The notes beneath the pieces were generated by a model that was not told the origin of the DNA, made no database searches, and saw only the letters and a list, made by a program, of their open reading frames with translations. From positions 1 through 64,000 of the IMG/VR virus record IMGVR_UViG_3300036795_000108: a stretch of DNA of 64,000 nt. One strand, written 5' to 3'. The translations under genes were made by a program, and so were the position numbers. The DNA comes from a virus. How positions within the stretch are numbered: the stretch's first letter is position 1; each line of letters opens with the position of its first letter. Positions 24,798 through 59,381 of this stretch are shown here, piece by piece.

Positions 24798-25687
24798 TAG
24801 CGCCTGAACTCGAACGCGCGTTGCTTGACGACCAGCGGCTTGTCCTTCGGTCCCTTGACGGAATCGGGGATCCATATAGGTAAATGTCGATTCTGACTCG
24901 GATACCACTGATTCCGCCAATGGGCCCGGGAGATCCACCTATGAGTCCAATTGACGTTTCGCCTGTCATCCGTGTCCGCGTAGATCTTGCGTCGCAAAAC
25001 CATGACGATGACGGTCTTGACCTGTCGGGCTTTGGCACGCCGTCGAACCGGCCGGCTGACATCTCCCTTGTTCAAAACGAACAGGCGTTGCTGGGCGAGA
25101 AACCAGAAGGAGACAAGCAGCTTCGCGATCGGGAACTGGTAGCTGGCCACACTCCCGTCGCCGGGAAACGCGACCTCTGATACAAGCGGCGCGAGCGTCC
25201 CGAATGCGTCCGAGTAGCCGATCACAACGGCGAGGTTTGAGTCGGGCCTCTTGACCGTCACCCACGCGAACGCGACCAGTGAAGCATCCTCCCAGAAGTT
25301 AGGGATCGACTCGGCTAGCCAGACAAACCCGTTGGGGATCAGCAGATCGCTTTCTCGTAGCTCGAAAGGGTCCATAGGATCGCGGAAGCCCGCTGCGATA
25401 ATCGCCGAAACCTCCGCGGAGGCGTAAATGGCTTCGCAGTCGGACAGGCCCATCTTGGTCGCCGTATAGAGGGGAGGCATGTCCATCTCTGCAAACAGAT
25501 CCGCCTTATCGGGCAGCAGCGTTGGGCCAATATGGGTCATGGCGGCCGAGATCGTCTTCGCCCAGTCATCTCCGCGTTGACTTCTGACGAACGCGATGGC
25601 GTCCGTCAGCTTGTCCATCGCGATCTCGTAGCCGCGATCCGTCGGCTGTCCGTAACCGTGGACTCCTGGTATACGCTTTTCCTGCAT
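24797..25687 (-). CDS. Hypothetical moron-like protein
   Basis: AT-richer codons; own promoter and leader; C-terminal HRWISRAHWRNQWYPS...IWI...KGP motif. Confidence 0.65.
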   Translation of the reverse strand: MQEKRIPGVHGYGQPTDRGYEIAMDKLTDAIAFVRSQRGDDWAKTISAAMTHIGPTLLPDKADLFAEMDMPPLYTATKMGLSDCEAIYASAEVSAIIAAGFRDPMDPFELRESDLLIPNGFVWLAESIPNFWEDASLVAFAWVTVKRPDSNLAVVIGYSDAFGTLAPLVSEVAFPGDGSVASYQFPIAKLLVSFWFLAQQRLFVLNKGDVSRPVRRRAKARQVKTVIVMVLRRKIYADTDDRRNVNWTHRWISRAHWRNQWYPSQNRHLPIWIPDSVKGPKDKPLVVKQRAFEFRR

Positions 25688-25708
25688 CGGACCTCGATTC
25701 CGGTGTCG

Positions 25709-25737
25709 GCCCCGGAGCGTTCCTGCGCTGCCGGGGC
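25709..25737. promoter_or_regulatory. Structured leader hairpin, CAGGAA loop, copy 1
   Basis: Minus strand GCCCCGG-C-AGCG-CAGGAA-CGCT-CCGGGGC. Confidence 0.7.
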
Positions 25738-25782
25738 ATTCTTTACGGGCGTCTAATCCTACAGCCGATCCCGGCTCGCGGG

Positions 25783-26157
25783 TCACGCAGTCTCTTTCGC
25801 CCAGCGGTTCTGCTCGTCCTTGACCAGCCCCGTCCGGGGCATCACGCGGTACAGGTAGTTCGCCGTGATGCCGAGCTTCTGAGCGATCTCCGGGATCGTC
25901 AACGGCCCGTTCTGCTCGACCGCCCCTACGGCCTGCTGAAGCCGCGAGCCGCCCTTCTGAGACCCCGGAGGGCGCCCGCGACGACGACGAGTCGGGCGCG
26001 ACTTGACGACGGTGTCCTCCAACTTGGCTGTCGAGGCGGGCGGCTGGCCATTCTCGCCGAGCGCTCCGAGCGCGGCCCGCAGCTTCTCGGCCTGGACCTC
26101 ATGAAAGACAAGGCCCTCCCGGATCTTCTCCGCCACTGCTTCTACGTGCTGCATCAC
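25783..26157 (-). CDS. Coiled-coil + AT-hook + winged-HTH DNA-binding protein
   Basis: RRRRGRPPGS, LTIPEIAQKLGITANYLYRVMP. Confidence 0.75.
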   Translation of the reverse strand: MMQHVEAVAEKIREGLVFHEVQAEKLRAALGALGENGQPPASTAKLEDTVVKSRPTRRRRGRPPGSQKGGSRLQQAVGAVEQNGPLTIPEIAQKLGITANYLYRVMPRTGLVKDEQNRWAKETA

Positions 26158-26431
26158 TTCCTCCTCTGGTTGACTCTAGGTAATCGGGGCGTCTACCGTC
26201 CGCGGAGTCAAGGCATCGAGCGCTTCTTGTAACTCGCGACGATGAAACCCCGGGACTACCTGCGCATGTTCGGCGAGAAGATGCTCAACCGCGTGGATAA
26301 GTTCGCTCATGGGCGCAACCGACGCGACCTCGACATCCTCGCCGAGCGCCAATGACGGACCTCGTTTAGCGACGATGTCGAGTGGCATCAGCGACCGGGC
26401 GTCGGAGCCAGTGAGCACCCAATGTCGTCGG

Positions 26432-27553
26432 TCAGGCACCGCGTTCCTCCTCCGGGAGCTGGGAGCGCAGGTAGGCGATCTCCTCATCCATCTCCGCTAC
26501 CTGCTCAAGCGTGACGCCTAACGCGGTCTGCTTGTCCTCCAACTCCGCGATGCGAGCGCGCGCGACCTCCGGAGCGATCTCCACCCCGCCATCCCCGCCA
26601 TCCCCGCCATCCTCCGGTACCACCACCGCGTCGGTGACCAACTCCTCGCTCGCATCCTCAGCCCGGCGGTTTAGCTCCTCGGCCTGCCGAAGCCACACCT
26701 CGATCGCCGCGCCATCCTGGCCACCCAACGCCATCTGCGCCGCCGCTGGCGACAACGTGCCCGGACGCACCTCCTGAGCCCGATCGTAGATCGCCCGGAA
26801 GCGCTCACGGAACGCCTCGGGCAGATCATTCGTGATGCTGACGACCATCTCCTCGACCGTCTCCGCGCTCGGCGCCGGCCGCGACGGCTCATCGCTCCAC
26901 GTCGGGATCTCGCCCTCGGTGTAGACCGCGATCCCGCCAGTCGCCTTCGGGCAGTACCACTTCACCCCATTCGACATCGCCCGGTTGAACTTCATGTTGC
27001 GGGGATAGGTGACGTGATTCGGGTCCGCCCCCTTGCTCGTCTTATCGAGCAGGTGAGCACGCCCGGCGTCCTCGTCATCGAAGCGCGACTCTCCCGCGTA
27101 CTCCTCGCCCGGGCGCTGACGCGAGGGCTGGCAGTGATCGCAATGGCGCTCCTGCACTCCGGCGTTCGGGCAACCCTTGGCGTGACGCAGATAGCCGACC
27201 TCGTCGGGATCGGCGAACTCGGTGCGCTCGAAGAAGTGGATCTCGCACGCCGCGTTCGTATGCTCGACGATCGCGTAGCGGTAGTCGGGCAGCTCCTGTA
27301 CGAACGTCGCCAGCAGGTTGGCACCCACAACCGGGTTGCCCTTGACCATGTAAATCCCGGTCATTGACTGCTGCGCCGTCAGCCCCAGGCTGCGACCCAT
27401 CTGGATCTTCGTTACCGCCTGGTAGAAGTTGCGGACGTCCGGGAACATCCCCGACTCCGCGAAGCCCTTAGACAGGCGGATGTCGAAGTCGAGTTGCTTG
27501 TGGGGATTGAGGGTCGCTACCTCGCTGCCCGGCTTCTGTTCAGTCTCCGGCAT
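26432..27553 (-). CDS. RecT-like ssDNA annealing protein
   Basis: FAESGMFPD...QAVTKIQMGRSLGLTAQQSMTGIYMVKG...YPRNMKFNRAMS; lies near an exonuclease. Confidence 0.7.
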   Translation of the reverse strand: MPETEQKPGSEVATLNPHKQLDFDIRLSKGFAESGMFPDVRNFYQAVTKIQMGRSLGLTAQQSMTGIYMVKGNPVVGANLLATFVQELPDYRYAIVEHTNAACEIHFFERTEFADPDEVGYLRHAKGCPNAGVQERHCDHCQPSRQRPGEEYAGESRFDDEDAGRAHLLDKTSKGADPNHVTYPRNMKFNRAMSNGVKWYCPKATGGIAVYTEGEIPTWSDEPSRPAPSAETVEEMVVSITNDLPEAFRERFRAIYDRAQEVRPGTLSPAAAQMALGGQDGAAIEVWLRQAEELNRRAEDASEELVTDAVVVPEDGGDGGDGGVEIAPEVARARIAELEDKQTALGVTLEQVAEMDEEIAYLRSQLPEEERGA

Positions 27554-27816
27554 CCTGCTCCTCTCCGTTGTACGGCTGCTCATGTCGATGTCTCATCCCT
27601 AACGCGAACTCGGCGTCGGCGCGGACGGAGAACGGACCGTCGATCAAACGCTCGTCCGGACCGACCGCGAAGAACACCCCGTCAGCCTCCTCCACATACG
27701 GCTGCGGGAGCGCCTCATAGTCCGGATGCTCGCGCAGATAGCGCGACGGAAACAGCATCCCTTCGACCATCGGCATGACGCCACCTCTTTCATAGGAACC
27801 TCTGCTCGGGAGCACA

Positions 27817-27826
27817 GAGTATAACG
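27817..27826 (-). promoter_or_regulatory. CGTTATACTC promoter motif with variant CCCGAGC leader
   Basis: Exact 10-mer heading the recombination operon. Confidence 0.8.
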
Positions 27827-28004
27827 CAGCGCCAAGAGGTGTGAAGATCGAGACGCCGGACCGCGATCTGTTTTCTCGCTCCGAAGATGGCCCAGAACGA
27901 GCCCGAACAAGAACGGCTGGGTGGCCGCTCCGCCTACGAAAGGACATCGCGGTCCGGCAGTCTCAATCGCCGGGGAGGATACACGCTCCCGTACGATCCC
28001 CCGC

Positions 28005-28769
28005 ATGGACAGCGATCCGCGACTCGGATTCGTGATCGTCGACTGGAAGACCCCACGGCTCGCCGCGGCCTGCTCAGAGTCGATCCGGACGCTGCGCCCC
28101 CGCTCCGAGATCCTCACCGTCAACGCCGCCGGCGCGAGCCTCGGATACGCCCAAGCTCTCAACGCCGGGATCGGCGCGTTGTGCTCCGAGGCGGACGTCA
28201 TCGTCTGCCTGAACGCCGACACGCGGATGCTCGAAGCAGACGACGCGATCCTCGACCTGTTCGACCGCGACCCGGACCTCGCGATCATCGGCCCGCGGCA
28301 GATCAACGCCCGGCGCCAGATCGTGCATGGCGGGATCGTTCAATGGCCCGACGGCACCCCCTGGGATCTGGACCTGAGGCACCGCTGCTGGCATCAGCTC
28401 GTCGACCAGCCGCACGTCGACGCGCTTACCCGCATGACGTTCGAGGTCCCGACCGTCGCCGGCAGCGTCATCTACTGCCGGCGCCGTACCCTGAGCGCGC
28501 TCGGCGGCTGGCCGGAGTTCAGCCGCTACTACTACGAAGACACCGGCCTCTGCCTGCTGGCGCGCCACCACCAGCGCCGGGTCCTCTACACCGGCAGCGT
28601 CACCTGGGAGCACCTGCACGAGGGATCGCCGTTGCGTCGCAGCGTGCGGACGCACTTCATCACCAAGGCGACCGGCCAGTTCATCGCATGGAGCGCCGAG
28701 CAGGGCATCCCGCTCAACATCGAACCGGACGCGCAGAGAGTCCTCGCCCGGGATGCGGGAGTGCTGTGA
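28005..28769 (+). CDS. Glycosyltransferase family 2
   Basis: FVIVDWKT...LGYAQALNAG...CLNADT...VAGSVI...YYEDTGLC; leaderless TACGAT-N7-ATG. Confidence 0.9.
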   Translation: MDSDPRLGFVIVDWKTPRLAAACSESIRTLRPRSEILTVNAAGASLGYAQALNAGIGALCSEADVIVCLNADTRMLEADDAILDLFDRDPDLAIIGPRQINARRQIVHGGIVQWPDGTPWDLDLRHRCWHQLVDQPHVDALTRMTFEVPTVAGSVIYCRRRTLSALGGWPEFSRYYYEDTGLCLLARHHQRRVLYTGSVTWEHLHEGSPLRRSVRTHFITKATGQFIAWSAEQGIPLNIEPDAQRVLARDAGVL

Positions 28770-29545
28770 GCGTCGGCGCGGAGGGCCTGAACCTCGTCGC
28801 GTCCGTCATCGCGCGAGACGAGCTGGCGAGATATCAACCCGCGCTCGTCCACCACCTGAGCGGCTGGGTTGACGAGGTCAGGGTCCTCGATGACTGCAGC
28901 ACCGACGGGACCTACCAGGCCCTCGAAGCGCTCGGGCCTAAGGTCCACGTCCAGCACATCCTCGGCGCGAGCGCGTGGGACATGTTCGGCGAAGGAGCCG
29001 CCCGGCAGCAGGCCCTCGAATGGGCGATGCAAGCCCGCCCGACACACGTCCTCCACGTCGACGCCGACGAGGTCATCCCGGACGGCAAGCTGCTGCGCCG
29101 CGCGATCCTGCGCAACCCCGACTGTGACGTGTTCACCCTGACGATGCGGGAGATCTGGAAGCGCGACGGGATCCCGTGGCAGGAACGCGTCGACGGGCAG
29201 TGGGGGCCGCGGGAATGCCCGATCCTATGGCGGGTGCCCGACTCTGCGCGGCGGACCGGGGAGCTACCCGATGGCTACAACATCCGGCCGGTGAAGCTCG
29301 CCAGCGGCCGGGAACCAGAGATCGTCGCGACGCTCGGCGCGTTCGGGGATGCGGTCCGCACCGGCGTGGACATTCTGCACTTGGGTTGGAGTGACCCGGC
29401 GGAGCGCCGGCCCCGGTATGACCGGTACATGCAGATCGACGGGGGTGAGCATCACGCGTCCGAGCATCTGCTGTCCATCATCGAGCCGCCCGAGCTTGAG
29501 CCCTACCCGGCGCATCACGGCGTGCTGGGGTCTTCTACCTCATAG
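28766..29545 (+). CDS. Glycosyltransferase family 2-like
   Basis: VIARDE...VLDDCSTDGT...LHVDADE...ILHLGW; GTGA overlap with upstream GT. Confidence 0.85.
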   Translation: MSVGAEGLNLVASVIARDELARYQPALVHHLSGWVDEVRVLDDCSTDGTYQALEALGPKVHVQHILGASAWDMFGEGAARQQALEWAMQARPTHVLHVDADEVIPDGKLLRRAILRNPDCDVFTLTMREIWKRDGIPWQERVDGQWGPRECPILWRVPDSARRTGELPDGYNIRPVKLASGREPEIVATLGAFGDAVRTGVDILHLGWSDPAERRPRYDRYMQIDGGEHHASEHLLSIIEPPELEPYPAHHGVLGSSTS

Positions 29546-29811
29546 GCCGCGCCGCGTGCGACATGCTCGCCGCCGGCTGGAAGTTGGGACTCTCCGACCT
29601 TGCGGTACGCCACCGTGTCGGCGACATCCTCGTCCGCCTGCCTCGCATCCCACATCGCGAGAGCCTCCCCGTCGACCCCTTGGAGGACCAGCAGGTGATC
29701 TGGCAAGGGCCACGCGCGTTCCTCGCTTGGGATGGAGATCGTCTTCCCCGCGAACGGGTCGTCTTGGAAGCGGAGCAGAAACCCGCGCGGATCCAAAGCA
29801 GTCATCGTCAT
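29515..29811 (-). CDS. Hypothetical protein
   Basis: AAGGA RBS, follows the upstream stop by 2 nt. Confidence 0.55.
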   Translation of the reverse strand: MTMTALDPRGFLLRFQDDPFAGKTISIPSEERAWPLPDHLLVLQGVDGEALAMWDARQADEDVADTVAYRKVGESQLPAGGEHVARGAAYEVEDPSTP

Positions 29812-29813
29812 CG

Positions 29814-30629
29814 TTATTCCTTTTCTGTTTGTTGCTTCACACCGTTGACGTAGTCAAGGGCATGCTGGCCACTGCCGAAGTAGAAATCGCGCCAGCCATC
29901 CTCACTCCATCGCAGGCCCCCGATGCCCGTGCGGAGCGCGTCGACTGCCAAGTCCCACCGCTCCTGATCGCTGAGGTCGTACCAGACATCCCAGTCCCGC
30001 GCGTCGGGGTCGTCGCCCTCAACGCGATCGGCAGGATCGCGGACGCCGATCAGCGGCGGTATCCACGTCTTGCCCTCGAACGCGACGTAGGCGTTCGGGA
30101 ACGACTCGCAGACGCTGTAGCTGGTGACGACGATCTCGCCGGCGCGGAGCACGCGACACGCCTCGCGCCAGCCGGACGGGTAGTCGCCGTGGCCCTCGCG
30201 GAACACGCTGGTCTTGAACCCATCCTCGATCAGGCCGGCGATGAACTCGCCGTCCTCGGGCTCGACGTAGCCGTGGATCTCGCACTGGCCGTGGACGCGG
30301 GCGGCGAGCGCCATAGGCGCCGAGCCGACGCGCAGACAGGTATTGAGAACTGTCGCGAAGATCTCCTCACCATCGGCAAAGTGCTGCGGCCCGCAGCTCT
30401 GGAGAAACATCTCGAACTCGTGGTCAATCTGGTTTCCCCAGCCGGAGTGCTGCTGGTGAGCAGTGTCGTGGATGTAGTGGTCTGACGGGACCAGCGCCAC
30501 CTTCTCCTCGCTGCGGAGTATCCCGAAGATCCCGGCCGCGAAGTGGTTGCAGAGCTGCCCCATGTAGGCGCGTTCAGTCCCGTAGACCTCGACAGTCTCG
30601 GTGGGGGTGTGGAAGTAGATCCGGCTCAT
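29814..30629 (-). CDS. Hypothetical acidic phage protein
   Basis: 271-aa ORF with typical codon usage. Confidence 0.65.
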   Translation of the reverse strand: MSRIYFHTPTETVEVYGTERAYMGQLCNHFAAGIFGILRSEEKVALVPSDHYIHDTAHQQHSGWGNQIDHEFEMFLQSCGPQHFADGEEIFATVLNTCLRVGSAPMALAARVHGQCEIHGYVEPEDGEFIAGLIEDGFKTSVFREGHGDYPSGWREACRVLRAGEIVVTSYSVCESFPNAYVAFEGKTWIPPLIGVRDPADRVEGDDPDARDWDVWYDLSDQERWDLAVDALRTGIGGLRWSEDGWRDFYFGSGQHALDYVNGVKQQTEKE

Positions 30630-31243
30630 GAATTAGATGACGGCGGCGGCGACTTCTTCTCGTAGATCGGCACCCACGTCAACCCCGGTCCCGCAGGTGG
30701 CTGGCCGAACTTCGCAGGCCACCACTTACCGGTCCCAACAAGCCGCCACCCCTTCAGATACCTGGGAGTGGTCATTGGCAACCGTGCGACTCGGCAAGTC
30801 GCGCTCGGGCGAACTCGCGGTTACGCTCACCCTCCAAGGCGTCGCGAGCAGGCTCCTCCGACTCGGCGGCCGCCAACACCTGCTCCGCGAGCATCAACGC
30901 CGCCTCGCGCTGATTGACCGGGGATCTGCTATTCAGCACCCGCTCGGCCAGCAGCGACCAGACCGACGGGATCAGGACACGCCCATCGCGTGTCACCTCC
31001 GGACGAAACGACTTCATAGTCCCATCTCCATCGGGTCGAGTTGGCAGGCGGTCGACGCGCAGTCGAACACCCCATGCGTCCGGCAGGGCGGGGTGCCTTG
31101 GTCATCGTAGGAGCACACCGAGCCGTCCGGGCAGATGATCGTGATGGAGCCGTCCGGGCTTGGGATGATCCGTAGGGACGCGCCTGTATAGGCCAGCGAT
31201 GTCTCCTCGATCCGGGCGTCCTGCTCATGGGTCGTAAGGCTCA

Positions 31244-31459
31244 TCAGGAATCCTTCGTCTGCGTTGGATACGCGCAGAAGTCGCCGGTCGGATCGACCCG
31301 CACATAGATCCCCGCGGCCGTGGACTCTCCGCAGTGGCAACACCGTCCGGTCGGGGGGGCGAGGATGCCTATTGGCTCGCGTCCGGGTTCGTTGATGAAC
31401 TCGGGCCAGCACCTAGTGCAGAGAGGCTGCGTCCAGCTAAAGCGTTGCTCAGGGGCCAT
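31244..31459 (-). CDS. Small zinc-binding protein
   Basis: CTRCW...CCHCG; first gene after the promoter copy at 31506. Confidence 0.55.
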   Translation of the reverse strand: MAPEQRFSWTQPLCTRCWPEFINEPGREPIGILAPPTGRCCHCGESTAAGIYVRVDPTGDFCAYPTQTKDS

Positions 31460-31505
31460 CAAATCCTCTTTTCGTAGGGGCGCCTGTTCGGGAAGCGCTC
31501 CGCCT

Positions 31506-31515
31506 AAGTATAACG
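31506..31515 (-). promoter_or_regulatory. CGTTATACTT promoter motif (1 mismatch) with CCCGAAC leader hairpin
   Basis: Divergent intergenic region. Confidence 0.8.
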
Positions 31516-31548
31516 GAGCGTCAAGCGGATGTGATGTAGGCTCCCGCC

Positions 31549-31785
31549 ATGCCGAAACTCTGGACCCCACCAGCGGAGCCCGAACTCGAGCTAGGGCGCC
31601 GGCCCGGCATCCGCTTCAACGTGCCCGAAGCGCAGTTGCGCGCCGCGGTCCGGCAGCAGGCTGCGGCCGAGCAGATCCGCGCCGCCGAAGAGATCACCCG
31701 CGCTACCCGCCGTGCAGCCAAAGCCGCGAAGCGTAAGGCGCACGCGGTCGCTCGCAAACGCGCCCAGCTTGAGCGGCAGCGGTGA
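31549..31785 (+). CDS. Small basic protein (leaderless)
   Basis: TAGGCT-N6-ATG; first of four coupled plus-strand ORFs (others 31782-31994, 31991-32215, 32212-32949). Confidence 0.55.
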   Translation: MPKLWTPPAEPELELGRRPGIRFNVPEAQLRAAVRQQAAAEQIRAAEEITRATRRAAKAAKRKAHAVARKRAQLERQR

Positions 31786-32211
31786 TGCGCCCCCGAGCTG
31801 CCCGGTCGATCGTGCGGTGGATCTCCGCCGCGATGGACCGCAGCTACGCCGCCTACCTCGACAACCACGAGGAGCTGTCGCAGTCCTGGGCTGCTGTCTT
31901 CCGCTGGCGCCAGCGAGTTGGTCTGAAGCTCGCGGTCGTGATTGACCGTGACGCGGCGTTGGATCAGATGGCGAACGAAGGGTGGTGGGGATGAGACAGA
32001 TCCCGCCGATGCCCAAGATCCCGGCCGACTACACGGCCCTCATCACCACGCACGACGGCTGGTGGTTCCGCTACACCGTCACCCGCCACCACGGCATGTT
32101 CAACCTGGAGCGCACGCACAGCCATCACCGCACACTACGCGGCGCACGGCGAAGCGCCCGACGGTGGACGGCTCGCAATGAGACATCCGAGCCGCAGGTC
32201 GTGGAGTGGAC

Positions 32212-32949
32212 GTGACGGTCCCGCTCGTCATCGCCTGCCCCGCGTACCGTCGAGCTTGGATTCTCCCGAGGTGGTTTGACTCGGTCCAGGCCCAGCACCC
32301 GCCGGACGGAACGCGCTACGTGTTCGCGCTCAGCTACGACGAAGACGGCCGGGATCCCGACGGGACCGCCGCGGTGATTCAACAACGATGCCCCGCCGCG
32401 GAGATCCTCGACGTGCCCGGCATCGGCTTCGAGGACTCCGAACGCGACAGCGAGCACCGCTACGCCTACCTAGCCGACATCCGCAACCGGCTGCTGCGGA
32501 TCGTCGCGGCCATCGGACCGGCCTACTACCTGAGCCTCGACAGCGACATCCTCATGCGCCCAGACGCGCTCTCCGCCCTCCTGCGGGCCGCAGACGGCAG
32601 GGGCGCAGTCGGCGGCCTTATCGACATGGGAGGCGCCCAGATGCCCGGACACTGGTCCTGGATGCACCTCGACGGCGACGACGCCTACCGCTCCAACCAG
32701 AGGGTCCCGCTCGCGACTGACTGGCCCGGACCGATCGGCGAGAACGAGGCGATGCCGCAACTCCCCAGTCGCCTGCGGGTCGGCGTCATCATGGGCTGCA
32801 AGCTGATGAGCCCCAACGCCTACCGCAACGCCCGCTACGCCGACCACGTCGACGGCGAAGACGTCGGCTGGGCAATCCAAGCCCGTGCGATGAACGTGCC
32901 GCTCTGGCTCGTCCCGGCCGCCCGAGGCGAGCACATCCTGCGCTACTAG
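32212..32949 (+). CDS. Glycosyltransferase (GT-A fold)
   Basis: IACPAYRR...LADIRNRLL...YLSLDSDIL...GEDVGW. Confidence 0.85.
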   Translation: MTVPLVIACPAYRRAWILPRWFDSVQAQHPPDGTRYVFALSYDEDGRDPDGTAAVIQQRCPAAEILDVPGIGFEDSERDSEHRYAYLADIRNRLLRIVAAIGPAYYLSLDSDILMRPDALSALLRAADGRGAVGGLIDMGGAQMPGHWSWMHLDGDDAYRSNQRVPLATDWPGPIGENEAMPQLPSRLRVGVIMGCKLMSPNAYRNARYADHVDGEDVGWAIQARAMNVPLWLVPAARGEHILRY

Positions 32950-33293: not shown

Positions 33294-33327
33294 TTCCTCC
33301 TCCTCCGCAGGGAGATCATAGGCCGAG

Positions 33328-33337
33328 GAGTATAACG
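33328..33337 (-). promoter_or_regulatory. CGTTATACTC promoter motif (rightmost copy)
   Basis: Exact 10-mer directly after the terminator hairpin. Confidence 0.8.
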
Positions 33338-33341
33338 CTGA

Positions 33342-51298: not shown

Positions 51299-51302
51299 CG
51301 CG

Positions 51303-51701
51303 TCAGAACTCGGTGCGGACCTGATGGTCGATGTTCCACGTGATCGACGGGGAGGTCCCCGCGATCGTCGCGACCCACCGGCACTTCACGCCCAGCCCGA
51401 CGAACGTCATCTGCGCCGAGCCGTCCGCGGTGATCGCCCCGAACGCCCCGTTGGGGACATCCGTCCATGTGGTGCCGTCCATCGAGTTCTGCAGCTTGAC
51501 GGTGATCGACGCGCCCGAACCCGAGATCGCGGTCACGTTGACCTGCGCGTCGAGCTGGTAGGCGTCCTCGGTCGCGAACGCCGACCCGGTGAATGTCGCC
51601 GTGCTCGTCTTCGAGGCGATGTCCGCGCCGGCCAGCTTGCGGGTCGGACGGTACCGACGATCAAGGCTCGCGCCCGCCGTCGCCCTTGATGCCACTGTCA
51701 T
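51303..51701 (-). CDS. Small beta-rich virion protein
   Basis: AAAAGGAG RBS; LQNSMDGTTWTDV; follows the major tail gene. Confidence 0.65.
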   Translation of the reverse strand: MTVASRATAGASLDRRYRPTRKLAGADIASKTSTATFTGSAFATEDAYQLDAQVNVTAISGSGASITVKLQNSMDGTTWTDVPNGAFGAITADGSAQMTFVGLGVKCRWVATIAGTSPSITWNIDHQVRTEF

Positions 51702-51723
51702 CTGATTCTCCTTTTGACGCGAC

Positions 51724-52803
51724 CTAGATCAGTGCCGTCGAGATGCCGTTGATGGACTGGAACTGGACGTCGGCGTCGTCATACGGCGAGTAGTAGCCGC
51801 CGAAGTTCACCGCGTAGGTGATGTCGCCGTTGGCCTGCAGGTCGCCCGGGCCCGCCGAGTCTGCGGTCAACTCAACCGCGTTGATCGTGACCTGCACCGC
51901 CTCATACTGCGGCCCGGTCGAACCCGAGATCGCACCCCCGACGAAGTTGAAGGCGAACTTCTGGACCTGCGCGAAGTCCAGCGCGACGTCCTGCGCGCTG
52001 TTGACATTGCCGAACGTCAAGGTGCCCGTGATGTCAAGCTGAGCCCCGAGCTTGTACTGCGACGGGAACCACAGCTTCCGGGTCAGCGGCGACGCGCCCA
52101 ACGTCTGAGCGACGATGTTGTGCCCCGCATACCACTTCCGGGTGATGTTGTTGTTGAACGTCAGATCGACGCCCTGCAGATCCGGGATCGTCGTCGAAGA
52201 CCCATCGATATACGCCGAAGCGTCGCGCAGCAGCAGGATCTGATCGACGTCGGTGTAGGTCGGCGTCGGCATGTCCGTCGCATACGGCCCGTAGTACAGG
52301 CCCTGGATCTCCGCCGAAAGCGTCCCCTCGCTGTCCAGTGGGAAGCTCGCCGTCAGCGAGTTCACGAACCCGCCCGACATCTTCTGGTTCAGGTCGTCGC
52401 GAACGAGCTGGCAGTGCATCGACGGAAGCTGTGTCGCCCCGAAACCCAGCTCCGTGAACGAGTGGGTGTACCCGGTGTCCGCGGACCCCGTGACGGTGTC
52501 CGTTGCGCCGAGCAGCTTGCGCATCAGCTTCTCCCACACCGACCGGTACGCCGGCACGGGGATCGTCATCGTGGGGCCGGCCATCAACGGGTCGGGGGTC
52601 GCGATCGAACGCCGCCCCCGGACCTCGTTCGACTTGTCGATCCGAGTCAGGCCACGATCCAGCGACCCGCCGGTGACCGGCCAGAACACGGTCGCGTCCG
52701 GCACGGTGCCGTCCGTGAGGTTCTCGTATGAGGTCCCGCCGATGACGTCGTCCGTGATACCGAACAGGCGGCGAATTGCGGGACTCGGATAGGTGACGGG
52801 CAC
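51724..52803 (-). CDS. Major tail tube protein
   Basis: Size, composition and position before chaperones and tape measure. Confidence 0.75.
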   Translation of the reverse strand: MPVTYPSPAIRRLFGITDDVIGGTSYENLTDGTVPDATVFWPVTGGSLDRGLTRIDKSNEVRGRRSIATPDPLMAGPTMTIPVPAYRSVWEKLMRKLLGATDTVTGSADTGYTHSFTELGFGATQLPSMHCQLVRDDLNQKMSGGFVNSLTASFPLDSEGTLSAEIQGLYYGPYATDMPTPTYTDVDQILLLRDASAYIDGSSTTIPDLQGVDLTFNNNITRKWYAGHNIVAQTLGASPLTRKLWFPSQYKLGAQLDITGTLTFGNVNSAQDVALDFAQVQKFAFNFVGGAISGSTGPQYEAVQVTINAVELTADSAGPGDLQANGDITYAVNFGGYYSPYDDADVQFQSINGISTALI

Positions 52804-52806
52804 TGG

Positions 52807-53232
52807 CTATCGCTCCTTGGGCTTGTCGATGGGCTGCGGCAGGACGGTCGTCTCAGACGGCGGGAAGTCCTCCGCTGTCCTCGCGGTCTGATCGGCCTCC
52901 CAGAACGCCGCGTCACGCGCCGCCGCCTTGGAGGCGATCTCCTCGATCGTCGGGCCGCGAGGGAAGCCGCCCGCGGCGATGGTCAGCGCCTCCTCGTCGA
53001 TCTCCTTGACCGAACGGCAAGCGAGGCCACGCGCATCCGCGAACCGCTTCGCGGCCGCCGTGAGTTGACTGCCCGACAGCGGGTCGCCGTTGTCGTCCTG
53101 CAGCTCCGGTATCCGCTGCGCGGCCCGCTCGACGGGGATCCCGCCCTTGCCGGAGCCACCGATGACGCCGACGCCGGCCAGCTCGACGCTATACGGCGCG
53201 TCGTCATTGGTGACGAAGATGGTCGGTGACAT
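52807..53232 (-). CDS. Hypothetical virion-region protein
   Basis: CAGGAGG RBS. Confidence 0.6.
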   Translation of the reverse strand: MSPTIFVTNDDAPYSVELAGVGVIGGSGKGGIPVERAAQRIPELQDDNGDPLSGSQLTAAAKRFADARGLACRSVKEIDEEALTIAAGGFPRGPTIEEIASKAAARDAAFWEADQTARTAEDFPPSETTVLPQPIDKPKER

Positions 53233-53265
53233 GAGTGGTTGGTGCCTCCTGGGTCGATGGGTGGG

Positions 53266-53775
53266 CTACTGGACCTGCCGGTCCGAAATGAAGGTCTGGA
53301 TGAACTCGATCCCGCTCACGGTGCTCGAACCGAAGCTGTCCATGAACGAGTTCAGCGACGTGCGCATCGCCCACGTGATCGCGCCCTGGATCGCGGGGGG
53401 CTGACCGCTGCCGCTCCAGAAGTTCGCGTCCACCAAGGCCCGGTAGGCGTCCGCGTACATCTCGACCGCCGACATCAACTGGTCGCTGTCAGACGGCCCC
53501 TGCCCGATCCGCGATGAGATCACGAACGTGTCGCGCCGGCGGATCAGGTCCATCTGCTGCGACGTGCTCGGCAGCAGCGTGTTCCACAGGCACGGCGGGT
53601 CGGGCGTGTCAGGCCGCCAGCGGTACGTACGCAACGTCACGTCGCCCGGAAGGTCCGCGAGCGCCGGCAAGCCCGGCAGGAGCGCCTGGAGAGCCGTCAG
53701 ACGGTCCATGAGCGCCGTCAGCGACCCCGGGGAGCCGATCGGGACGTCGGTGATGAAGTCGATCGTGGCGCTCAC
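53266..53775 (-). CDS. Putative tail terminator
   Basis: Synteny and size only. Confidence 0.5.
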   Translation of the reverse strand: MSATIDFITDVPIGSPGSLTALMDRLTALQALLPGLPALADLPGDVTLRTYRWRPDTPDPPCLWNTLLPSTSQQMDLIRRRDTFVISSRIGQGPSDSDQLMSAVEMYADAYRALVDANFWSGSGQPPAIQGAITWAMRTSLNSFMDSFGSSTVSGIEFIQTFISDRQVQ

Positions 53776-54329
53776 AGCGATGTCCTGTACTCGATCTGCT
53801 GCACCTTGCGGGCCCGGCCGAGCAGGCCCTGAGCAACCTCGGGGATCTTCGCCAACTCCTGCTGCCAGCGATCCATCGTCCCGTCAACCGCGCGCTGGAC
53901 GAAATGCTGCGCCGGGGTGCCCCTGATGCTCCGCGCGAACACATACCGGGCGTTCGCGCCCGCGTTGCCCTTGCGCTGGCGACCCGCCAACGTGAAGCTC
54001 GCGTTGCCGGGCTCCGGGAAACGAAATGCCTTCGCGCGCGTCGGATAGATCCGGCTGCGTCGCGGCCCGTAGATGCCGGTCCCCTGGTCGACGTAGATGC
54101 CGTAGAAGGCCGAGGTGCCGACCTGCCCCTGGATCGTGTTGTCACCCACCGTCCGCACGATGTGCGTCATCCGGCGCCGCAGGTCACCCGTCCGCGACGG
54201 CGCGAGCGTCCGCATCGAATCCTCGACGTACTGCATCGCGGACTCCATCTGCAAGCGGGCCGCCTCAAAGTACGCGTCGCGGACCGCCTGCGGCGTCTGG
54301 TTGCTCAGGTCAAGGACGACGGACGGCAT
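53772..54329 (-). CDS. HK97 gp10-like tail completion protein
   Basis: APSRTGDLRR...YGIYVDQGTG...GTPAQHFVQRA. Confidence 0.8.
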   Translation of the reverse strand: MPSVVLDLSNQTPQAVRDAYFEAARLQMESAMQYVEDSMRTLAPSRTGDLRRRMTHIVRTVGDNTIQGQVGTSAFYGIYVDQGTGIYGPRRSRIYPTRAKAFRFPEPGNASFTLAGRQRKGNAGANARYVFARSIRGTPAQHFVQRAVDGTMDRWQQELAKIPEVAQGLLGRARKVQQIEYRTSL

Positions 54330-54330
54330 C

Positions 54331-55374
54331 TCAAATGAACGCGCCGTTGGGCACGATGTACGTGCTCAACGCCGCCTGGGTTGAGGAAGGCAGCGTCTTG
54401 AAGAACTGCCAGATCACGCCGTCCGCGGTGATCATCTGATCGCTGAACGCGGCGTTGCGCTCCATGTAGAGCCGGCCCGCGACCTGATAGACGGCATCGA
54501 CCACGTCCGGGGGCGGCACGAGCCATCCCCACCGACCGACGATCTGCAGGTCCTGGGTCATCCACGGCCCGTAGCCGAGCATCACCCCGAACGCCGCAGC
54601 GTCCGGCAGGAACGGGATCAACTCGATGCTGGTGACCGGCTCGGCGTCCGCGTCACCCAACCCGAACTGCCCATCCGGCCCATAGCCGCCATAGCCGAGG
54701 TCGTACTGGTTGGCCTGAAGGCGCTGGCCACGCAGGCTCAGGCCCTGAAACTGCGGCATCCGCGGATCCGGCGCCGAATCGATGACCCGCAGGTCAGGGA
54801 CGCGCACCGTCGTCTTGCCGCGCGTCGAGAACGCTTTGAGCACCGGCGGCGCCGAGTCAAACCCACAGTCGGTCACCACCACCGCAGCGGAAACCCCGAG
54901 CGCGCCCGCGTCCGTGGTGACCGCCGGCTGAACACCCACCAGCGACCCGCCGAACGTGATCGACACCGAATAGGTCGGCAGCGGGCCGCCGGACACCAGC
55001 ACCTCGCCGGCGCCCAAACCCCATGCGCCGTCCAGCGCCGTCTGGATCTCCGCTGCCGTCCAGTCCGCGTCGATCTCCGCCGTCTCACCATCAAACGTCA
55101 ACGGGAACGAGCCCGACACGGCCGCGATCGGCTGGACTGACATGATGCTGACGAGCCTGCGCTGAAAGCCCGTATCAGGGTCATCCAACGCAGGCTCGGG
55201 AGCGAAACGCCTACGGGTGAAACGCTCCACGAACCGCTCCGCCGCGCACAACTTCGACGTCAGGACGGTCAGCTTCAGCGTCGAGTTCGCCTCAACGTTG
55301 ATCTGGTCCTGCGCGATCAGCACATCCGAGAATCTCGGCTGCGCCGGCGCGGGGATATTCACGGTCACGGACAC
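54331..55374 (-). CDS. Head-tail adaptor with inserted domain
   Basis: AAERFVERFTRRRF and GRWGWLVPPPDVVDAVYQVAGRLY flank a GSFPLTFDG...IQTALD...VSGGPLP...ITFGG module. Confidence 0.7.
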   Translation of the reverse strand: MSVTVNIPAPAQPRFSDVLIAQDQINVEANSTLKLTVLTSKLCAAERFVERFTRRRFAPEPALDDPDTGFQRRLVSIMSVQPIAAVSGSFPLTFDGETAEIDADWTAAEIQTALDGAWGLGAGEVLVSGGPLPTYSVSITFGGSLVGVQPAVTTDAGALGVSAAVVVTDCGFDSAPPVLKAFSTRGKTTVRVPDLRVIDSAPDPRMPQFQGLSLRGQRLQANQYDLGYGGYGPDGQFGLGDADAEPVTSIELIPFLPDAAAFGVMLGYGPWMTQDLQIVGRWGWLVPPPDVVDAVYQVAGRLYMERNAAFSDQMITADGVIWQFFKTLPSSTQAALSTYIVPNGAFI

Positions 55375-55399
55375 GAGCTAACCCGAACGGCGAGGACGG

Positions 55400-55798
55400 T
55401 CAGTCCTTGCTCTTGGCCGAGGACTTCGCGCGTGACGCCGCCGCCTCGACCCCTCCCTCCTCGGCGGGATTCTCCTTCGCGGCCGCCTTGGCCTTGGCGC
55501 CTGTCGCCTGCTTGGCGGACTCGTCATGCGTCGCGTCGATGTCGCGCTCCTTCTCCTCCGACATCGAATCCGCGAGCGCGCGATCCTGCGGATGGGTGAG
55601 CGGATCGCCACGCAGATCCGCGTCCGCGACCTCGACCTCGCGACGCTGCGGGTTCGGCGGACCGGTCTGCCCGACCAGATCCACCGGCTCGCCCACGCCC
55701 TCCTTGATGATCTTCTCGATCGTGACCGTGTCACCGTCGGGAATGTCGAACGGCTGGCCCTCCACGAACCGGCCCTTGCCAGTGCCCTTGAACTGCAT
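55400..55798 (-). CDS. Hypothetical protein downstream of capsid
   Basis: AAAGGAG RBS before MQFKGTG. Confidence 0.6.
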   Translation of the reverse strand: MQFKGTGKGRFVEGQPFDIPDGDTVTIEKIIKEGVGEPVDLVGQTGPPNPQRREVEVADADLRGDPLTHPQDRALADSMSEEKERDIDATHDESAKQATGAKAKAAAKENPAEEGGVEAAASRAKSSAKSKD

Positions 55799-55832
55799 CA
55801 GAAATGCTCCTTTCGGTGCCGCTCTCTCCGGC

Positions 55833-57428
55833 TTAGGAGACGAGCACGCCCTCCTGCTGGATGATCTGGCTGGGGTACAGCGAGTTGATGTCGTGACGCA
55901 GCGTCGACTTGAACAGCGTCTGGTTGTTCTGGAACGACGAGACCCAGGTCGTGCCGCCATCCGGCGTGTAGGACGCGTCGGTGGACACCTCGACGACCAT
56001 CTCCTGGTTCAGGCCGACGACCAACTGGGCCATGTCGACCAGCAGCAGCCACGTCGCGTTGTTCGACGAACCCTGCGTCAGGTTCGTCGGGATCTGCTGG
56101 GAGCAGTAGAACGGGACGCTGTCCAGCACGCCCGAGATCCCGACGCCCGCGCCGGTGATCGCACCCGAAGCCGACGGGTCGACCTGATTCTCGGTGTAGC
56201 GCAGCAGCGACGTGTCCGCGAGGAACCGCCCGAGCGAGTCGGTCAGACCCTCGACGTAGGTCAGGAACATCGGATTGAAGAACCACGTCCACCGCGGGTT
56301 GGGCACGTTGAAGCGCCGCACGTAGTTGCGGATCGCGCGGAGCTGAGGCAACGTCGGCTGGAAGCCGTCCGTCGCCGGCGTGATCGGGTTGGTGACGATC
56401 CCCGAGATGTTCACGATGCCCGTCGGGGAGCCCGTCTCCGTGCCCGGATCGCCCATCAGGAAGTTCTTGTCCTCCTTCAGAGCGATGACCGTCGCGAGAT
56501 CCTGCCGGATCGCCATCTCGGCGTCGGTCTGCACCTGGTTGGGCACGTCGGTACGCCGACTGTCGTTCAGCAGGTAGGTCGAGACGGGAACCAGACCGGT
56601 GAGGTTCTTCGGGGTCAGCAGCGTAACCTGAGCGAACGTCTCCTGCGACGGAGTGATCGCCGCGTTCTCCGGCGTGTAGTACGCCGTCGCGCCCGTGGAA
56701 AGCTGCACCTGATTCATCTGCGCCGAGAACGGCACGATCCGCGGACCCGCGCGACGCACGACCGTCACCCCGCGGAACAGCGGCAGAATGTCAGGCATCC
56801 AGTCCGCCGGGATCAGATAGCCACCCGCCGAGCCGGTGCCCTCCGCCAGCGCCTTCTGCTCCATCATGAACTGCCGCTCGGCATCCGACGCGAAACCCTT
56901 CGCCATCGCGTCCATCGCCGAGAAGAACCGCATGAACGACTTGGCCTCCTTCAGCGCCTTCACGCCGACATGCGCGCCCGCGGACGCCGCCTCCAAGCCG
57001 CTACCGGCAAGGATCAGCCCGCCCTGCTGGGTTGAGCCGCCACCCGCGAGATGCTTGATGACATCGTCGCTGGCGCCATCACCCGCGAAGCGGTTGCCGC
57101 CGTGCTGCTTGAGCGTCTCAACGGCCGTCGAAACCGTCTGAGCCTGCCGAGCGAGCGTGTCGCCGGCCTGCTTCAGCGTGGCCTCGCGTGCGTCCAACTC
57201 CGCAATGCGATCCTCAAGCGACTTCTCGCCGGTCGTCGCGGCCGCCGGGGCGCCGTTGCCGTCTCCCTCACCATCACCGTCTCCGGCGGACGGCTTGATG
57301 CCCTTGACCTGGGTCTCCAGGGTGCTCAGCAACTCCGCGAGATCCGGCCCGTCATCGGCGCCCACAATCGGCGCGAAGCGAGCCCGGAACTCCTCGGGGC
57401 TGAGATCTCGAATGCGGGTCGTATGCAC
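55833..57428 (-). CDS. Major capsid protein (HK97 fold) with N-terminal scaffold-like domain
   Basis: KALAEGTGSAGGYLIP...PKNLTGLVPVSTYLLND...FQNNQTLFK; AAAGGAG RBS. Confidence 0.92.
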   Translation of the reverse strand: MHTTRIRDLSPEEFRARFAPIVGADDGPDLAELLSTLETQVKGIKPSAGDGDGEGDGNGAPAAATTGEKSLEDRIAELDAREATLKQAGDTLARQAQTVSTAVETLKQHGGNRFAGDGASDDVIKHLAGGGSTQQGGLILAGSGLEAASAGAHVGVKALKEAKSFMRFFSAMDAMAKGFASDAERQFMMEQKALAEGTGSAGGYLIPADWMPDILPLFRGVTVVRRAGPRIVPFSAQMNQVQLSTGATAYYTPENAAITPSQETFAQVTLLTPKNLTGLVPVSTYLLNDSRRTDVPNQVQTDAEMAIRQDLATVIALKEDKNFLMGDPGTETGSPTGIVNISGIVTNPITPATDGFQPTLPQLRAIRNYVRRFNVPNPRWTWFFNPMFLTYVEGLTDSLGRFLADTSLLRYTENQVDPSASGAITGAGVGISGVLDSVPFYCSQQIPTNLTQGSSNNATWLLLVDMAQLVVGLNQEMVVEVSTDASYTPDGGTTWVSSFQNNQTLFKSTLRHDINSLYPSQIIQQEGVLVS

Positions 57429-57991
57429 TGCGGTGGCTCCTTTGGAACGGGTTGGTCACGCTCGCGCGCGACGGTATGAACCCGAACCGTGTGACTGACC
57501 GGCTAACGCCAGCATTGCCCCAAGTGGGGAGTCAGGAGCCCGATGCGAAGAAAAGGCTACAGAAGCGCGCAGGCGTGCTCAGAAGCCACGACGCGCCTGG
57601 ATGAACGAGTGCGCCACCCGCGTCCCCTCGACCAGAAACGCGAAACGATGCACACCCGGACGGCTAAGCACCACCACCGCCTCAAAGGTCCCGTCGGGCT
57701 GCTGCGACACCGCGACCGCCTTCGGCTCAGACGTGCCCGCCGCCAACAGCTCGCAGGTCACCCGCCCCGATGGCTGCACCGACCCCCCAGCACCCGGGAA
57801 CATCGCCCGGAGCGCGACCGCGTCGCCCCTGCTGAACACCGCGCCCTGTCGAGGCGCGACCACCAAGCATGCCACCGGTCTCGCAGGCCCCGGCTGGCGC
57901 TCCCGGCGACGCACGTTGCTCGGACCGCGAGCATCCGCGAACACCGGACCCGGCAGATCCCCACGCCGACGAGAGCCATCCCCACGCTCGC

Positions 57992-58324
57992 TCATGGCAG
58001 CGCCAGCACCGTCAGCCGGTCCCCCGTCGCGAACGTCTCGATCTCCTCCGAGGACCACGTGACGACGATGAACGGCTGATAGACATCCGCGTTCGCCGTG
58101 TCGCCCGACGCGAACTCATAGGTCAGATTCCAGAAGTGCAGGCCATCGGGATCCGCGGTCGCGGGCCAAACCGCAGAGCCATCCCCGGAGAACTGGTAGG
58201 CCTTGCCGATGAACTCGACGAGGATGCTCTCCGCCGAGGAGAGGTTCAGCACGCCCGTCTCGTCAGACACCTGAAAGCGAGCGTCGGGGTAGCTGTCCCC
58301 GACATACATGCTGCGGCTGCTCAC
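57992..58324 (-). CDS. Small acidic Ig-like (BppU N-terminal-like) virion protein
   Basis: MYVGDSYP...LNLS...YEFASGDT...VTWS..IETF. Confidence 0.55.
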   Translation of the reverse strand: MSSRSMYVGDSYPDARFQVSDETGVLNLSSAESILVEFIGKAYQFSGDGSAVWPATADPDGLHFWNLTYEFASGDTANADVYQPFIVVTWSSEEIETFATGDRLTVLALP

Positions 58325-58330
58325 GGCGTC

Positions 58331-58510
58331 TCAGCCCTCCAGTGCGATGCTCGTCGTGTTCCCGTCAAGACTGGCCGACGGCGCCGGATTCTGTACCAAC
58401 AGCGCCGGCCCGGGATTTCGCATCGCCAGCGCGGGCCCGGGGTTCTGCATCGTCGCCGAGGTCGGCAGCCACACCGCGATCCCGGAGCCAGTCAATTCGA
58501 TCCACGGCAT
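58331..58510 (-). CDS. 59-aa protein with three NP(G/A)P repeats (not in ORF track)
   Basis: MPWIELTGSGIAVWLPTSATMQNPGPALAMRNPGPALLVQNPAPSASLDGNTTSIALEG; its end supplies the GGAGG RBS of the next gene. Confidence 0.5.
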   Translation of the reverse strand: MPWIELTGSGIAVWLPTSATMQNPGPALAMRNPGPALLVQNPAPSASLDGNTTSIALEG

Positions 58511-58544
58511 CTCTGCCGCATGCTACGTCAGCGTGCAGGCGACC

Positions 58545-59228
58545 TCAGCGACGTACGTCGTGCGGCAATTCGATCATCGGCGCGCGTCGGGCAATAACGG
58601 GCGCTAGGCGCTCCATTGGATTGATCGACTCTAGGTAAACGGCGGTAGTCGTCAGATCGGCGTGTCCAAGAACAGCTTGGATCGTCAGTAGGTCAGCACC
58701 CTCGCGACGTAACTCCACGGAGAGCCCGTGGCGCAGAGCGTGGGGATGGGCCCGTTTACCAAGATGCGCACGCTGACCCGCGTCTCGCATCTGCCGCCGC
58801 AGATCGCAGTCCCACCACTTCGCGCCAGCAGTCAACCCCATCACAACCGGCAACAGGTATCCAGGCGCGAGGTCGCGACGAACGCGGAGCCACTGCTCAA
58901 GCTCGTCCCAGCCCCACGCGTCCATCCCGACAAGACGGCTGCGGTCACCCTTCCCATGCCGGATCAGGATGGTGCCCTGTTCAGGATCAAGATCGCGTTC
59001 GGTGAGATCCAGCAGCTCGCTGACACGCATCCCGGTCCGGTACATGACGATGATTGCAGCGCGAAGACGCGCGGCCATCACCTCGTAGGTCGCACCGGGT
59101 TTCTGCGGCACGCACTCGCTAAGAAGCGCGACGACATCGGTGAGCAGCAGCGGCTCTAGGGGATACTTGCGACGGTGAGCGCGGTCTCGTCGTGAGCCAC
59201 GCATACGAGTAGGCTGCGTTCTGTCCAT
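58545..59228 (-). CDS. Tyrosine recombinase, catalytic domain only
   Basis: RTGMRVSE (R), HGKGD (K), HALRH (HxxR), LGHAD (H), TTAVY (Y). Confidence 0.92.
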   Translation of the reverse strand: MDRTQPTRMRGSRRDRAHRRKYPLEPLLLTDVVALLSECVPQKPGATYEVMAARLRAAIIVMYRTGMRVSELLDLTERDLDPEQGTILIRHGKGDRSRLVGMDAWGWDELEQWLRVRRDLAPGYLLPVVMGLTAGAKWWDCDLRRQMRDAGQRAHLGKRAHPHALRHGLSVELRREGADLLTIQAVLGHADLTTTAVYLESINPMERLAPVIARRAPMIELPHDVRR

Positions 59229-59253
59229 GAGAGACTCCGTTCTCGTGGGCCAT

Positions 59254-59284
59254 GACCCTGGGCGGTTCCTGCCGCGCCGGGGTC
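59254..59284. promoter_or_regulatory. Structured leader hairpin, CAGGAA loop, copy 2
   Basis: Minus strand GACCCCGG-C-GCGG-CAGGAA-CCGC-CCAGGGTC. Confidence 0.7.
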
Positions 59285-59381
59285 GCTTATTGAGGTCTTT
59301 CAGGCTAGGGAACGCAAGGGTGAATCGGTACTAGACCTTCGTCTAGTCCTCTACCGGTTCTCACGCAAGCTGGGACGAGAC

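Follow-up and report, generated by a model that had tools for sequence, protein, structure and literature searches.

Why two unrelated genes of one phage should be preceded by the same folded leader is the question addressed here. The DNA analysed is a stretch of 64,000 nucleotides (the window), corresponding to positions 1 to 64,000 of the IMG/VR virus record IMGVR_UViG_3300036795_000108, a soil phage with a genome of 87,221 bp that is classed in IMG/VR as complete, with direct terminal repeats. The genes concerned encode a protein of 296 amino acids (aa; 24797–25687) and a tyrosine recombinase of 227 aa (58545–59228), and both are read from the minus strand. An original prediction, made from the DNA letters alone, had proposed that they share a sense/antisense control cassette. 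The results described below suggest that each of the two sites is probably a copy of a portable cassette of approximately 90 bp, which would specify a cis-encoded antisense RNA of approximately 66 nt over the Shine-Dalgarno (SD) sequence and the AUG of the gene that follows.

Read on the gene strand, the elements occur in the same order at both sites: a TANNNT hexamer, 19 nt, a bulged hairpin of the form CCCCGG-C-N4-CAGGAA-N4'-CCRGGG, a short linker, a stem around the SD and the ATG. All of the elements named in the original prediction were found at both sites where it had placed them; its estimate of 17–18 nt between the −10 and the hairpin is corrected here to 19 nt, the interval from the −10 to CCCCGG being the same at sites 1 and 2.

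At site 1, the sense −10 is TAGGAT (25756–25761, minus strand; atccta in plus-strand letters). The core of hairpin 1 (HP1), CCCCGG-C-AGCG-CAGGAA-CGCT-CCGGGG on the gene strand with the inner stem AGCG/CGCT, lies at 25710–25736; an additional outermost G-C pair (25709/25737) extends the whole hairpin to 25709–25737, giving 11 pairs and a bulged C (a G on the plus strand) in a structure available to both strands. The plus-strand sequence that follows, CATTCTTTAC (25738–25747), would form the T-rich tail of the predicted antisense RNA, and its A-rich complement on the gene strand opens the mRNA leader. Hairpin 2 (HP2; 25684–25706, both strands) encloses the SD GAGG (25692–25695) and the UG of the AUG. 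Its gene-strand mini-stem, CGGA..GAGG..TCCG, runs up to the ATG (25685–25687, minus strand) that opens the 296-aa gene, and on the plus strand it reads as a continuous 8-bp 5' hairpin. The antisense −10, TACGCT (25672–25677, plus strand), is situated within codons 4–6 of that gene.

At site 2, the sense −10 is read from the sequence as TAGCCT (59302–59307, minus strand). The HP1 core, CCCCGG-C-GCGG-CAGGAA-CCGC-CCAGGG on the gene strand (59256–59282; inner stem GCGG/CCGC), is part of a bulged hairpin that spans 59254–59284 on both strands. It contains the sole stem mismatch, which is C.A on the gene strand and U.G on the plus strand, as the original prediction had noticed. The tail, TCGCTTATTG (59285–59294, plus strand), is weaker than that of site 1. 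HP2 (59223–59250, both strands) encloses the SD GGAG (59235–59238) and the AUG (59226–59228), the mini-stem GAGA..GGAG..TCTC preceding the ATG at that position, and the antisense −10, TAGGCT (59210–59215, plus strand), lies within the recombinase coding sequence (CDS). At both sites the cassette ATG is in frame with the entire gene of 296 or 227 aa.

A scan of one genome per prokaryote species with the pattern CCCCGGCNNNNCAGGAANNNNCCRGGG yielded 57 loci; with one viral match, 59 matches were obtained in total. The inner stem, which the pattern leaves unspecified, was fully complementary in 15 of the 59, and for 13 of the 15 matches NNN-GGCAC, another small hairpin and an ATG came next. Each of the 13 derives from Actinomycetota (Solirubrobacterales, Patulibacter, Thermoleophilaceae, Gaiellales, Acidimicrobiia and Kitasatospora). 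From these 13 sequences and the two window copies a covariance model, R1, was built. In the 87,221-bp phage genome, R1 detects two copies only, at 25682–25761 and 59223–59307, both on the minus strand, with scores of 64.1 and 56.9 bits; the next-best match in the genome scores 9.7 bits (E=1). The strict cassette pattern also occurs just twice in the entire genome. The loose pattern taken alone is not significant, with 3 matches in the window against 1.36 expected and 3 or more in 15 of 100 shuffles.

Outside the phage, R1 finds 2, 7, 4, 12 and 3 copies in five host-type actinobacterial genomes, and it has matches in 36 of 151 genomes sampled from the class of Patulibacter and in 92 of 151 sampled from Streptomycetaceae. 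At least 119 IMG/VR viral contigs match a relaxed pattern, and 79 R1 matches were obtained in 80 viral loci drawn from that scan. The pooled set used below comprises 137 members. The other 25 of the 162 R1 rows were left out as partial, as exact duplicates, as lying less than 70 nt from the end of the locus, or as having no ATG, GTG or TTG at the expected place; three loci near contig ends were skipped in the tally of open reading frames (ORFs) and antisense hexamers. Judged from these matches, the cassette family is large and widespread in the mobile DNA of high-GC bacteria, specifically Actinomycetota. The portability claimed in the original prediction is borne out by more than 130 homologues in front of unrelated genes. 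Searches with blastn, using both window loci and a Kitasatospora cassette, gave no match in the phage collection and one weak match among plasmids; BLAST cannot track a covarying hairpin.

It is apparent that HP1 is maintained as a structure. In the 35-member set, 97.9% of cells are paired, with two-sided changes at 9 of the 11 pairs; for a second, independent set (29 members, class sample), the corresponding values are 99.7% and 8 of 11. The covariation score was reached by none of 500 shuffles in either set. A flanking pair that the search pattern did not include is also formed, by four pair types, in all 15 of the sequences compared. HP2 also covaries, although it is outside the structure given to R1: in it the SD or nearby bases are paired, and the CA of the conserved GGCAC pairs with the UG of the AUG, leaving the A of the AUG opposite a C.

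The original prediction anticipated further homologues with a conserved bulge and loop, and took the loop to imply a shared binding partner. The bulge is indeed invariant, with the bulged C in 29/29 and 19/19 members. The loop did not hold up: among members recovered with no pattern imposed on the loop, CAGGAA is present in 0/29 and 0/19 (0 of 48 for these unbiased sets together), and C-N3-A-A alone is kept along with the bulged C, so that the loop gives no grounds to expect a shared partner. Two other readings of the loop were rejected. As the −35 of an extracytoplasmic function (ECF) promoter, GGAAC has no −10 after it, and the loop is variable; as a CsrA-type site it lacks the GGA in many members.

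HP1 could alternatively be a site in DNA, either an inverted-repeat operator or a recombination site (a tyrosine-recombinase core or an attC-like folded site). Such a role would account for the portability of the cassette and for its link with recombinases, which many members head. HP1 is a near-perfect palindrome with Watson-Crick pairs only, and an asymmetric 6-bp centre between arms of 10–11 bp resembles a tyrosine-recombinase core site. In addition, a tRNA or tmRNA gene was found approximately 170–600 nt from the cassette in 6 of the 20 loci scanned with Rfam (L062, L066, L059, L088, L065 and L120), as expected of cassettes at the edge of integrated elements. Against this, the arms covary within a copy and differ between copies, which the recognition of half-sites by a protein does not need. 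The centre differs among members, and sites of this kind would be unable to recombine with each other because of that variation. In the window, where the copies are direct repeats, recombination would delete the 33.5 kb between them from a genome that is complete and has terminal repeats. Genes for SSB, helix-turn-helix (HTH), Zn-finger and secreted proteins are headed as well, and the cassette keeps a constant position with respect to the SD, the AUG and two promoter hexamers. A DNA-level site is, for these reasons, considered highly improbable. The more specific proposal that HP1 is a lox- or dif-like core, with the copies as attL and attR, was rejected: each copy is its own palindrome, so that recombinants would not be palindromic, and the centre varies in the family.

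One locus with a nearby tRNA gene, L059, contains two cassettes back to back (1277–1357, plus strand, and 1501–1583, minus strand), diverging and 143 bp apart. The pair adjoins the tRNA gene (1754–1826), and the plus-strand copy is without an ATG at the expected place.

The features that bear on an antisense RNA were examined across the family. A TANNNT hexamer on the opposite strand occurs in the first 30 nt of the ORF in 31/35, 25/29, 19/19 and 61/69 members, set by set. When pooled, it is present in 125 of the 137 members, as compared with 273 of 4402 control ORFs (6.2%) from the same loci. It lies 7–13 nt inside the ORF, with offset peaks at +7, +10 and +13. The positions of this hexamer lie outside R1, and the headed proteins are of many unrelated kinds. 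On the sense side, a TANNNT ending 8–32 nt before HP1 was observed in 93 of the 137 members, often with TTGNNN 17 nt further upstream. Among the Streptomycetaceae copies (L116–L134), the antisense hexamer TACGAT is encoded in the His-Arg-Ser/Thr codons of the protein family that they head.

A marked asymmetry is also seen between the strands. The antisense fold is more stable than the sense fold in 131 of the 137 members (means of −36.6 and −30.7 kcal/mol, respectively; Wilcoxon p = 1e–23), whereas among 245 control windows taken at the same loci the reverse complement has the more stable fold in 125. The antisense folds contain 401 G.U pairs, the sense folds 38. The sense HP2 has conserved C.A and A.C mismatches, and these, like the loop-closing C.A of HP1, are replaced by G.U pairs on the antisense strand. 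For the window itself, the predicted plus-strand RNAs have fold z values of −4.07 and −5.10, with none of 200 shuffles as good, compared with −2.06 and −1.59 for the gene strand.

These data bear directly on the proposal that the cassette is a purely cis-acting mRNA leader, in which HP2 would mask the SD and AUG, HP1 would be a 5' stabilizer or the site of a host RNA-binding protein, and any antisense RNA would be irrelevant. That HP2 takes in the SD and the UG of the AUG, both in the window copies and throughout the family, agrees with that proposal, as do the sense promoter kept in 93 members and the fact that the outer stem and bulged C of HP1 are more conserved than a terminator needs. It leaves unexplained, however, the opposite-strand hexamers within unrelated ORFs, the excess of G.U pairs and stability on the antisense strand, and the U-rich tract that follows HP1 on that strand, and the sense folds in the window barely exceed those of shuffles. 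A leader acting solely in cis is accordingly regarded as unlikely. The possibility of an RNA thermometer was dropped, as it too does not explain the antisense features.

Between the antisense hexamer and the first paired base there are mostly 4–8 nt (mode, 6–7), and that base is a G in 92 of 123 cases. In the 10 nt located 5' of HP1 on the sense strand there are, on average, 4.4 A and 1.3 T in the family; because the sense side is A-rich there, the antisense strand has a U-rich tract directly after HP1. Read on the plus strand, HP1 of site 1 would be a terminator hairpin according to this model. RNAs with these predicted ends have a median length of 66 nt (interquartile range, 65–68). Those of the window would run from about 25684 to 25746 (to 25747 at most; approximately 63 nt, −34.1 kcal/mol) and from about 59222 to 59292 (to 59294 at most; approximately 70 nt, −41.3 kcal/mol), both on the plus strand, and they fold as a 5' hairpin, a linker of 2–3 nt, the bulged hairpin and a tail. 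By their geometry they span, and are complementary to, the SD and AUG at both sites. The proposal that the cassette has sense and antisense parts, with an RNA running from inside the CDS to the hairpin and T-rich tail, thus gains comparative support from the hexamer counts, the fold asymmetry and the predicted lengths.

The hairpin with its T-rich tail on the plus strand might alternatively be a one-way insulating terminator, in which HP1 and the T-tract would halt antisense read-through before it enters the upstream gene, with neither a dedicated antisense promoter nor a regulatory RNA. A conserved antisense −35 is indeed absent, which this proposal would accommodate. An insulator would have no need, on the other hand, for an antisense TANNNT at a fixed distance from the 5' hairpin, nor for the covariation of HP2 and the greater stability of the antisense fold. 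Little credence can be given to it.

Several observations weigh against the antisense interpretation and should be stated. The sense TANNNT is absent from 44 of the 137 members. The antisense hexamer is not accompanied by a conserved −35, the information content being approximately zero (background) past about +16, and a scan for Escherichia coli-type (σ70-type) promoters returned none at either window site. The stems of HP1 are almost without G.U in either orientation, so the asymmetry resides mostly in HP2 and the loop-closing pair; moreover, the sequence profile of R1 holds GGCAC and CATGC, and it may favour members with the C.A positions. As regards termination, the family tail is only moderately U-rich (mean of 4.4 in 10), the site 2 tail has only 4 T in its first 8 bases, and, although a G+C-rich hairpin is present at both sites, a simple scan for terminators picks out site 1 (through a partial stem) and not site 2. 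Finally, many members share descent, including the 19 Streptomycetaceae copies that all head one protein family, and for that reason the member counts are not independent events.

The antisense interpretation can nevertheless be put in mechanistic terms. The sense promoter (TANNNT, often with TTGNNN 17 nt upstream) would give an mRNA with an A-rich 5' end followed by HP1 and HP2, and in this leader the SD would be paired within HP2, together with the UG of the AUG. An antisense promoter would be provided by the TANNNT within codons 3–6, with transcription starting approximately 7 nt further on, at or beside the start codon. The resulting RNA of approximately 66 nt would consist of a 5' hairpin, the complement of HP2, and a 3' hairpin, the complement of HP1, which with its U-rich tail would act as an intrinsic terminator. 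Able to pair without mismatch along the translation-initiation region, it would keep ribosomes from binding, and the duplex would probably be marked for cleavage. The headed gene would in this way be held at a low level, with stronger repression when more copies of the element are present. Three steps of this scheme are inferred from the sequence features: transcription from both promoters, an RNA end at the hairpin, and translational repression through pairing.

Calculated pairing energies speak to the specificity of such an RNA. Cognate antisense–sense pairing has a net value of −89 and −102 kcal/mol at the two sites, against −3 to −5 kcal/mol for pairing between them. It follows from this weak cross-pairing and strong cognate pairing that the two phage copies should, according to the model, act independently despite their identical loop.

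What the cassette heads in other genomes was also determined. The original prediction regarded it as a module for morons; this restriction is not upheld, the commonest headed genes being integrases, excisionase-like, replication-type and other mobile-element genes. The headed products include tyrosine integrases, serine recombinases, Cas1-like proteins, HTH_17 excisionase-like proteins, an approximately 300-aa replication-type HTH family in Streptomycetaceae (phrog_4707, phrog_37920), SSB, Zn-finger or HNH-like proteins and proteins with signal peptides. In a comparison of site 1 with a Gaiellales copy, the sequences are near-identical from the base of HP1 to +16, the flanks are at the random level and the proteins are unrelated. 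The two proteins of the window are likewise unrelated to each other (best BLASTP E = 0.49), as had been predicted.

In 103 of the 137 members, the ORF that begins at the cassette ATG has at least 70 aa; in 30 it is short. For 17 of these 30, a long ORF in another frame begins where the short ORF stops or next to that point, the two overlapping by ATGA or GTGA in 8 cases. Short ORFs are seen, for example, in L090, L103 and L104 (SSB) and in L097 (integrase), as well as in L073, L082, L112, L166 and others. This arrangement suggests that the real gene would be coupled translationally to the leader ORF, by way of a leader peptide. On the sequence evidence, the start codon and initial codons seem to travel with the cassette, whether it is fused in frame to the headed gene or coupled to it by a leader ORF.

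A broader role may be put forward tentatively, and on balance it is doubtful: that the cassette serves the actinobacterial mobilome as a general adaptor for gene capture. As such it would provide a promoter, a ribosome site, a start codon, the first codons and an antisense brake to any gene behind it, by fusion or through a leader ORF, and would spread among phages, integrative elements and plasmids by recombination at the conserved hairpin. Because the antisense RNA would act in trans, each element could by this means sense its own copy number.

Two groups of headed genes merit separate mention. The best Streptomycetaceae copies (19/19; L116–L134) head a single family of approximately 300 aa, whose members start with M-x-[IV]-H-R-[ST] and are assigned by PHROGs to a replication-type HTH. 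Cas1-like proteins (PF01867; TIGR00287) with an N-terminal Cys-rich segment are headed at L021:3980-5617, L096:1577-2965 and L095:1577-2689, and these may be casposase-like integrases of actinobacterial mobile elements.

Within the window, the recombinase behind cassette 2 matches PF00589 (E = 3.6e–28). It also has Xer- and invertase-like NCBIfam matches, every one of them under its cut-off. It is without the N-terminal SAM-like domain present in other cassette-headed integrases, and its size is close to that of invertase-type recombinases (NF007371, 74 bits, below the cut-off). For the 296-aa protein, no Pfam or NCBIfam family was found, and its sole match is phrog_15934, of unknown function. 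The G+C content at third codon positions (GC3) of the two headed genes is 0.67 and 0.73, and that of their upstream neighbours 0.83–0.89. An ORF for a PD-(D/E)XK nuclease (23676–24938, minus strand) follows directly after the 296-aa gene, overlapping it as listed, and its GC3 of 0.64 is also low. Because this adjoining, overlapping ORF shares the low GC3, cassette 1 may head a foreign module of two genes. The flanking phage proteins (875 and 383 aa), when used as queries, gave no relative among viral contigs.

The cassette does not correspond to a catalogued RNA. Rfam 15, in which identity with a known motif had been named as grounds for abandoning the original prediction, gave no match in the window at the gathering score. 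With E values up to 10, the region 25600–25850 returned chance-level hits only (mir-1909, 18.9 bits; int-alpA, 11.9 bits against a gathering score of 35.8), and no Rfam family overlapped the cassette in 20 other loci. Full-text searches of the literature found no description of the cassette in the papers covered, although tables of transcription start sites and small RNAs that accompany Streptomyces transcriptome studies may list such RNAs. The passage concerned in PMC3765725 deals with phage integration sites, a matter unrelated to it.

By analogy, the closest functional counterpart would appear to be RNA-OUT/RNA-IN of IS10/Tn10. As described in the relevant part of PMC5006887, IS10 RNA-OUT is a 69-nt antisense RNA that is complementary to the translation-initiation region, prevents ribosome binding and mediates multi-copy inhibition. 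Both would thus be small opposite-strand RNAs over the translation start of a mobile-element gene, of 69 nt in IS10 and approximately 66 nt, as predicted, in the cassette. The predicted cassette RNA differs in having two hairpins and in covering the whole leader, where that part of PMC5006887 gives only the first 35 nt for IS10. There is no homology of sequence or structure between the two, and no Rfam match, RF00240 included. The cassette, moreover, heads dozens of unrelated genes rather than one transposase, and its hosts are Actinomycetota, which are not known to possess Hfq.

In the CopA/CopT-tap-repA system of plasmid R1 and in repY-repZ of IncB/IncI plasmids, hairpin antisense RNAs with bulged stems target a leader, and a leader peptide is coupled to the downstream gene. 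The coupling inferred for 17 of the 30 short-ORF members would fit that scheme. The window cassettes differ from these plasmid countertranscript systems in being in frame with whole genes, neither of which is a replication initiator, and the family extends beyond rep genes.

Start-associated sequences (SAS/ESAS), in Cluster K mycobacteriophages and Cluster EF Microbacterium phages, are described in the sections concerned of PMC3203893 and PMC7302621 as repeats of unknown function at the ribosome site of some non-structural genes. According to those sections, they resemble the cassette in that an inverted repeat lies immediately upstream, ATG is strongly preferred and the headed families differ. 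They are reported there, in contrast to the strongly covarying HP1, not to support RNA pairing in the ESAS repeats. The 13-bp SAS motif (3–7 bp before the start codon) has no match in the window at up to 2 mismatches. The covariance model has no significant full-length match in TM4 (best, 12.8 bits, E = 0.04), and the 10 SAS genes of that phage have neither a positioned antisense TANNNT nor a consistent strand asymmetry. Identity with SAS/ESAS is rejected on the basis of the absent motif, the lack of a TM4 match and the lack of antisense features there.

The PeSL elements of T4-type phages, as presented in the portion of PMC2839356 concerned, combine a strong σ70-like early promoter with a same-strand terminator and were proposed to drive modular shuffling. 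They too are small mobile promoter and stem-loop cassettes, and the genes that they precede are non-essential or novel. That portion does not describe an antisense RNA covering the start codon for them, and their hosts and sequences are different. The window cassettes, for their part, have no σ70-type promoter matches, and on the gene strand the hairpin is without a T-run after it.

Taken together, the sequence data are best accounted for by a cassette for cis-antisense control of translation start, notable for its portability and its very wide spread in the mobile DNA of actinobacteria. Were the antisense RNA real, it would rank among the most widespread riboregulators of Actinomycetota, given the R1 matches in 92 of 151 Streptomycetaceae genomes, and it would account for low, copy-number-dependent levels of integrases, excisionases, replication genes and phage accessory genes in the phylum. 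The cassette would then mark the borders of gene cassettes in phage and island genomes and aid in the annotation of true start codons and leader ORFs, and it might offer a compact, orthogonal repression module for Streptomyces engineering.

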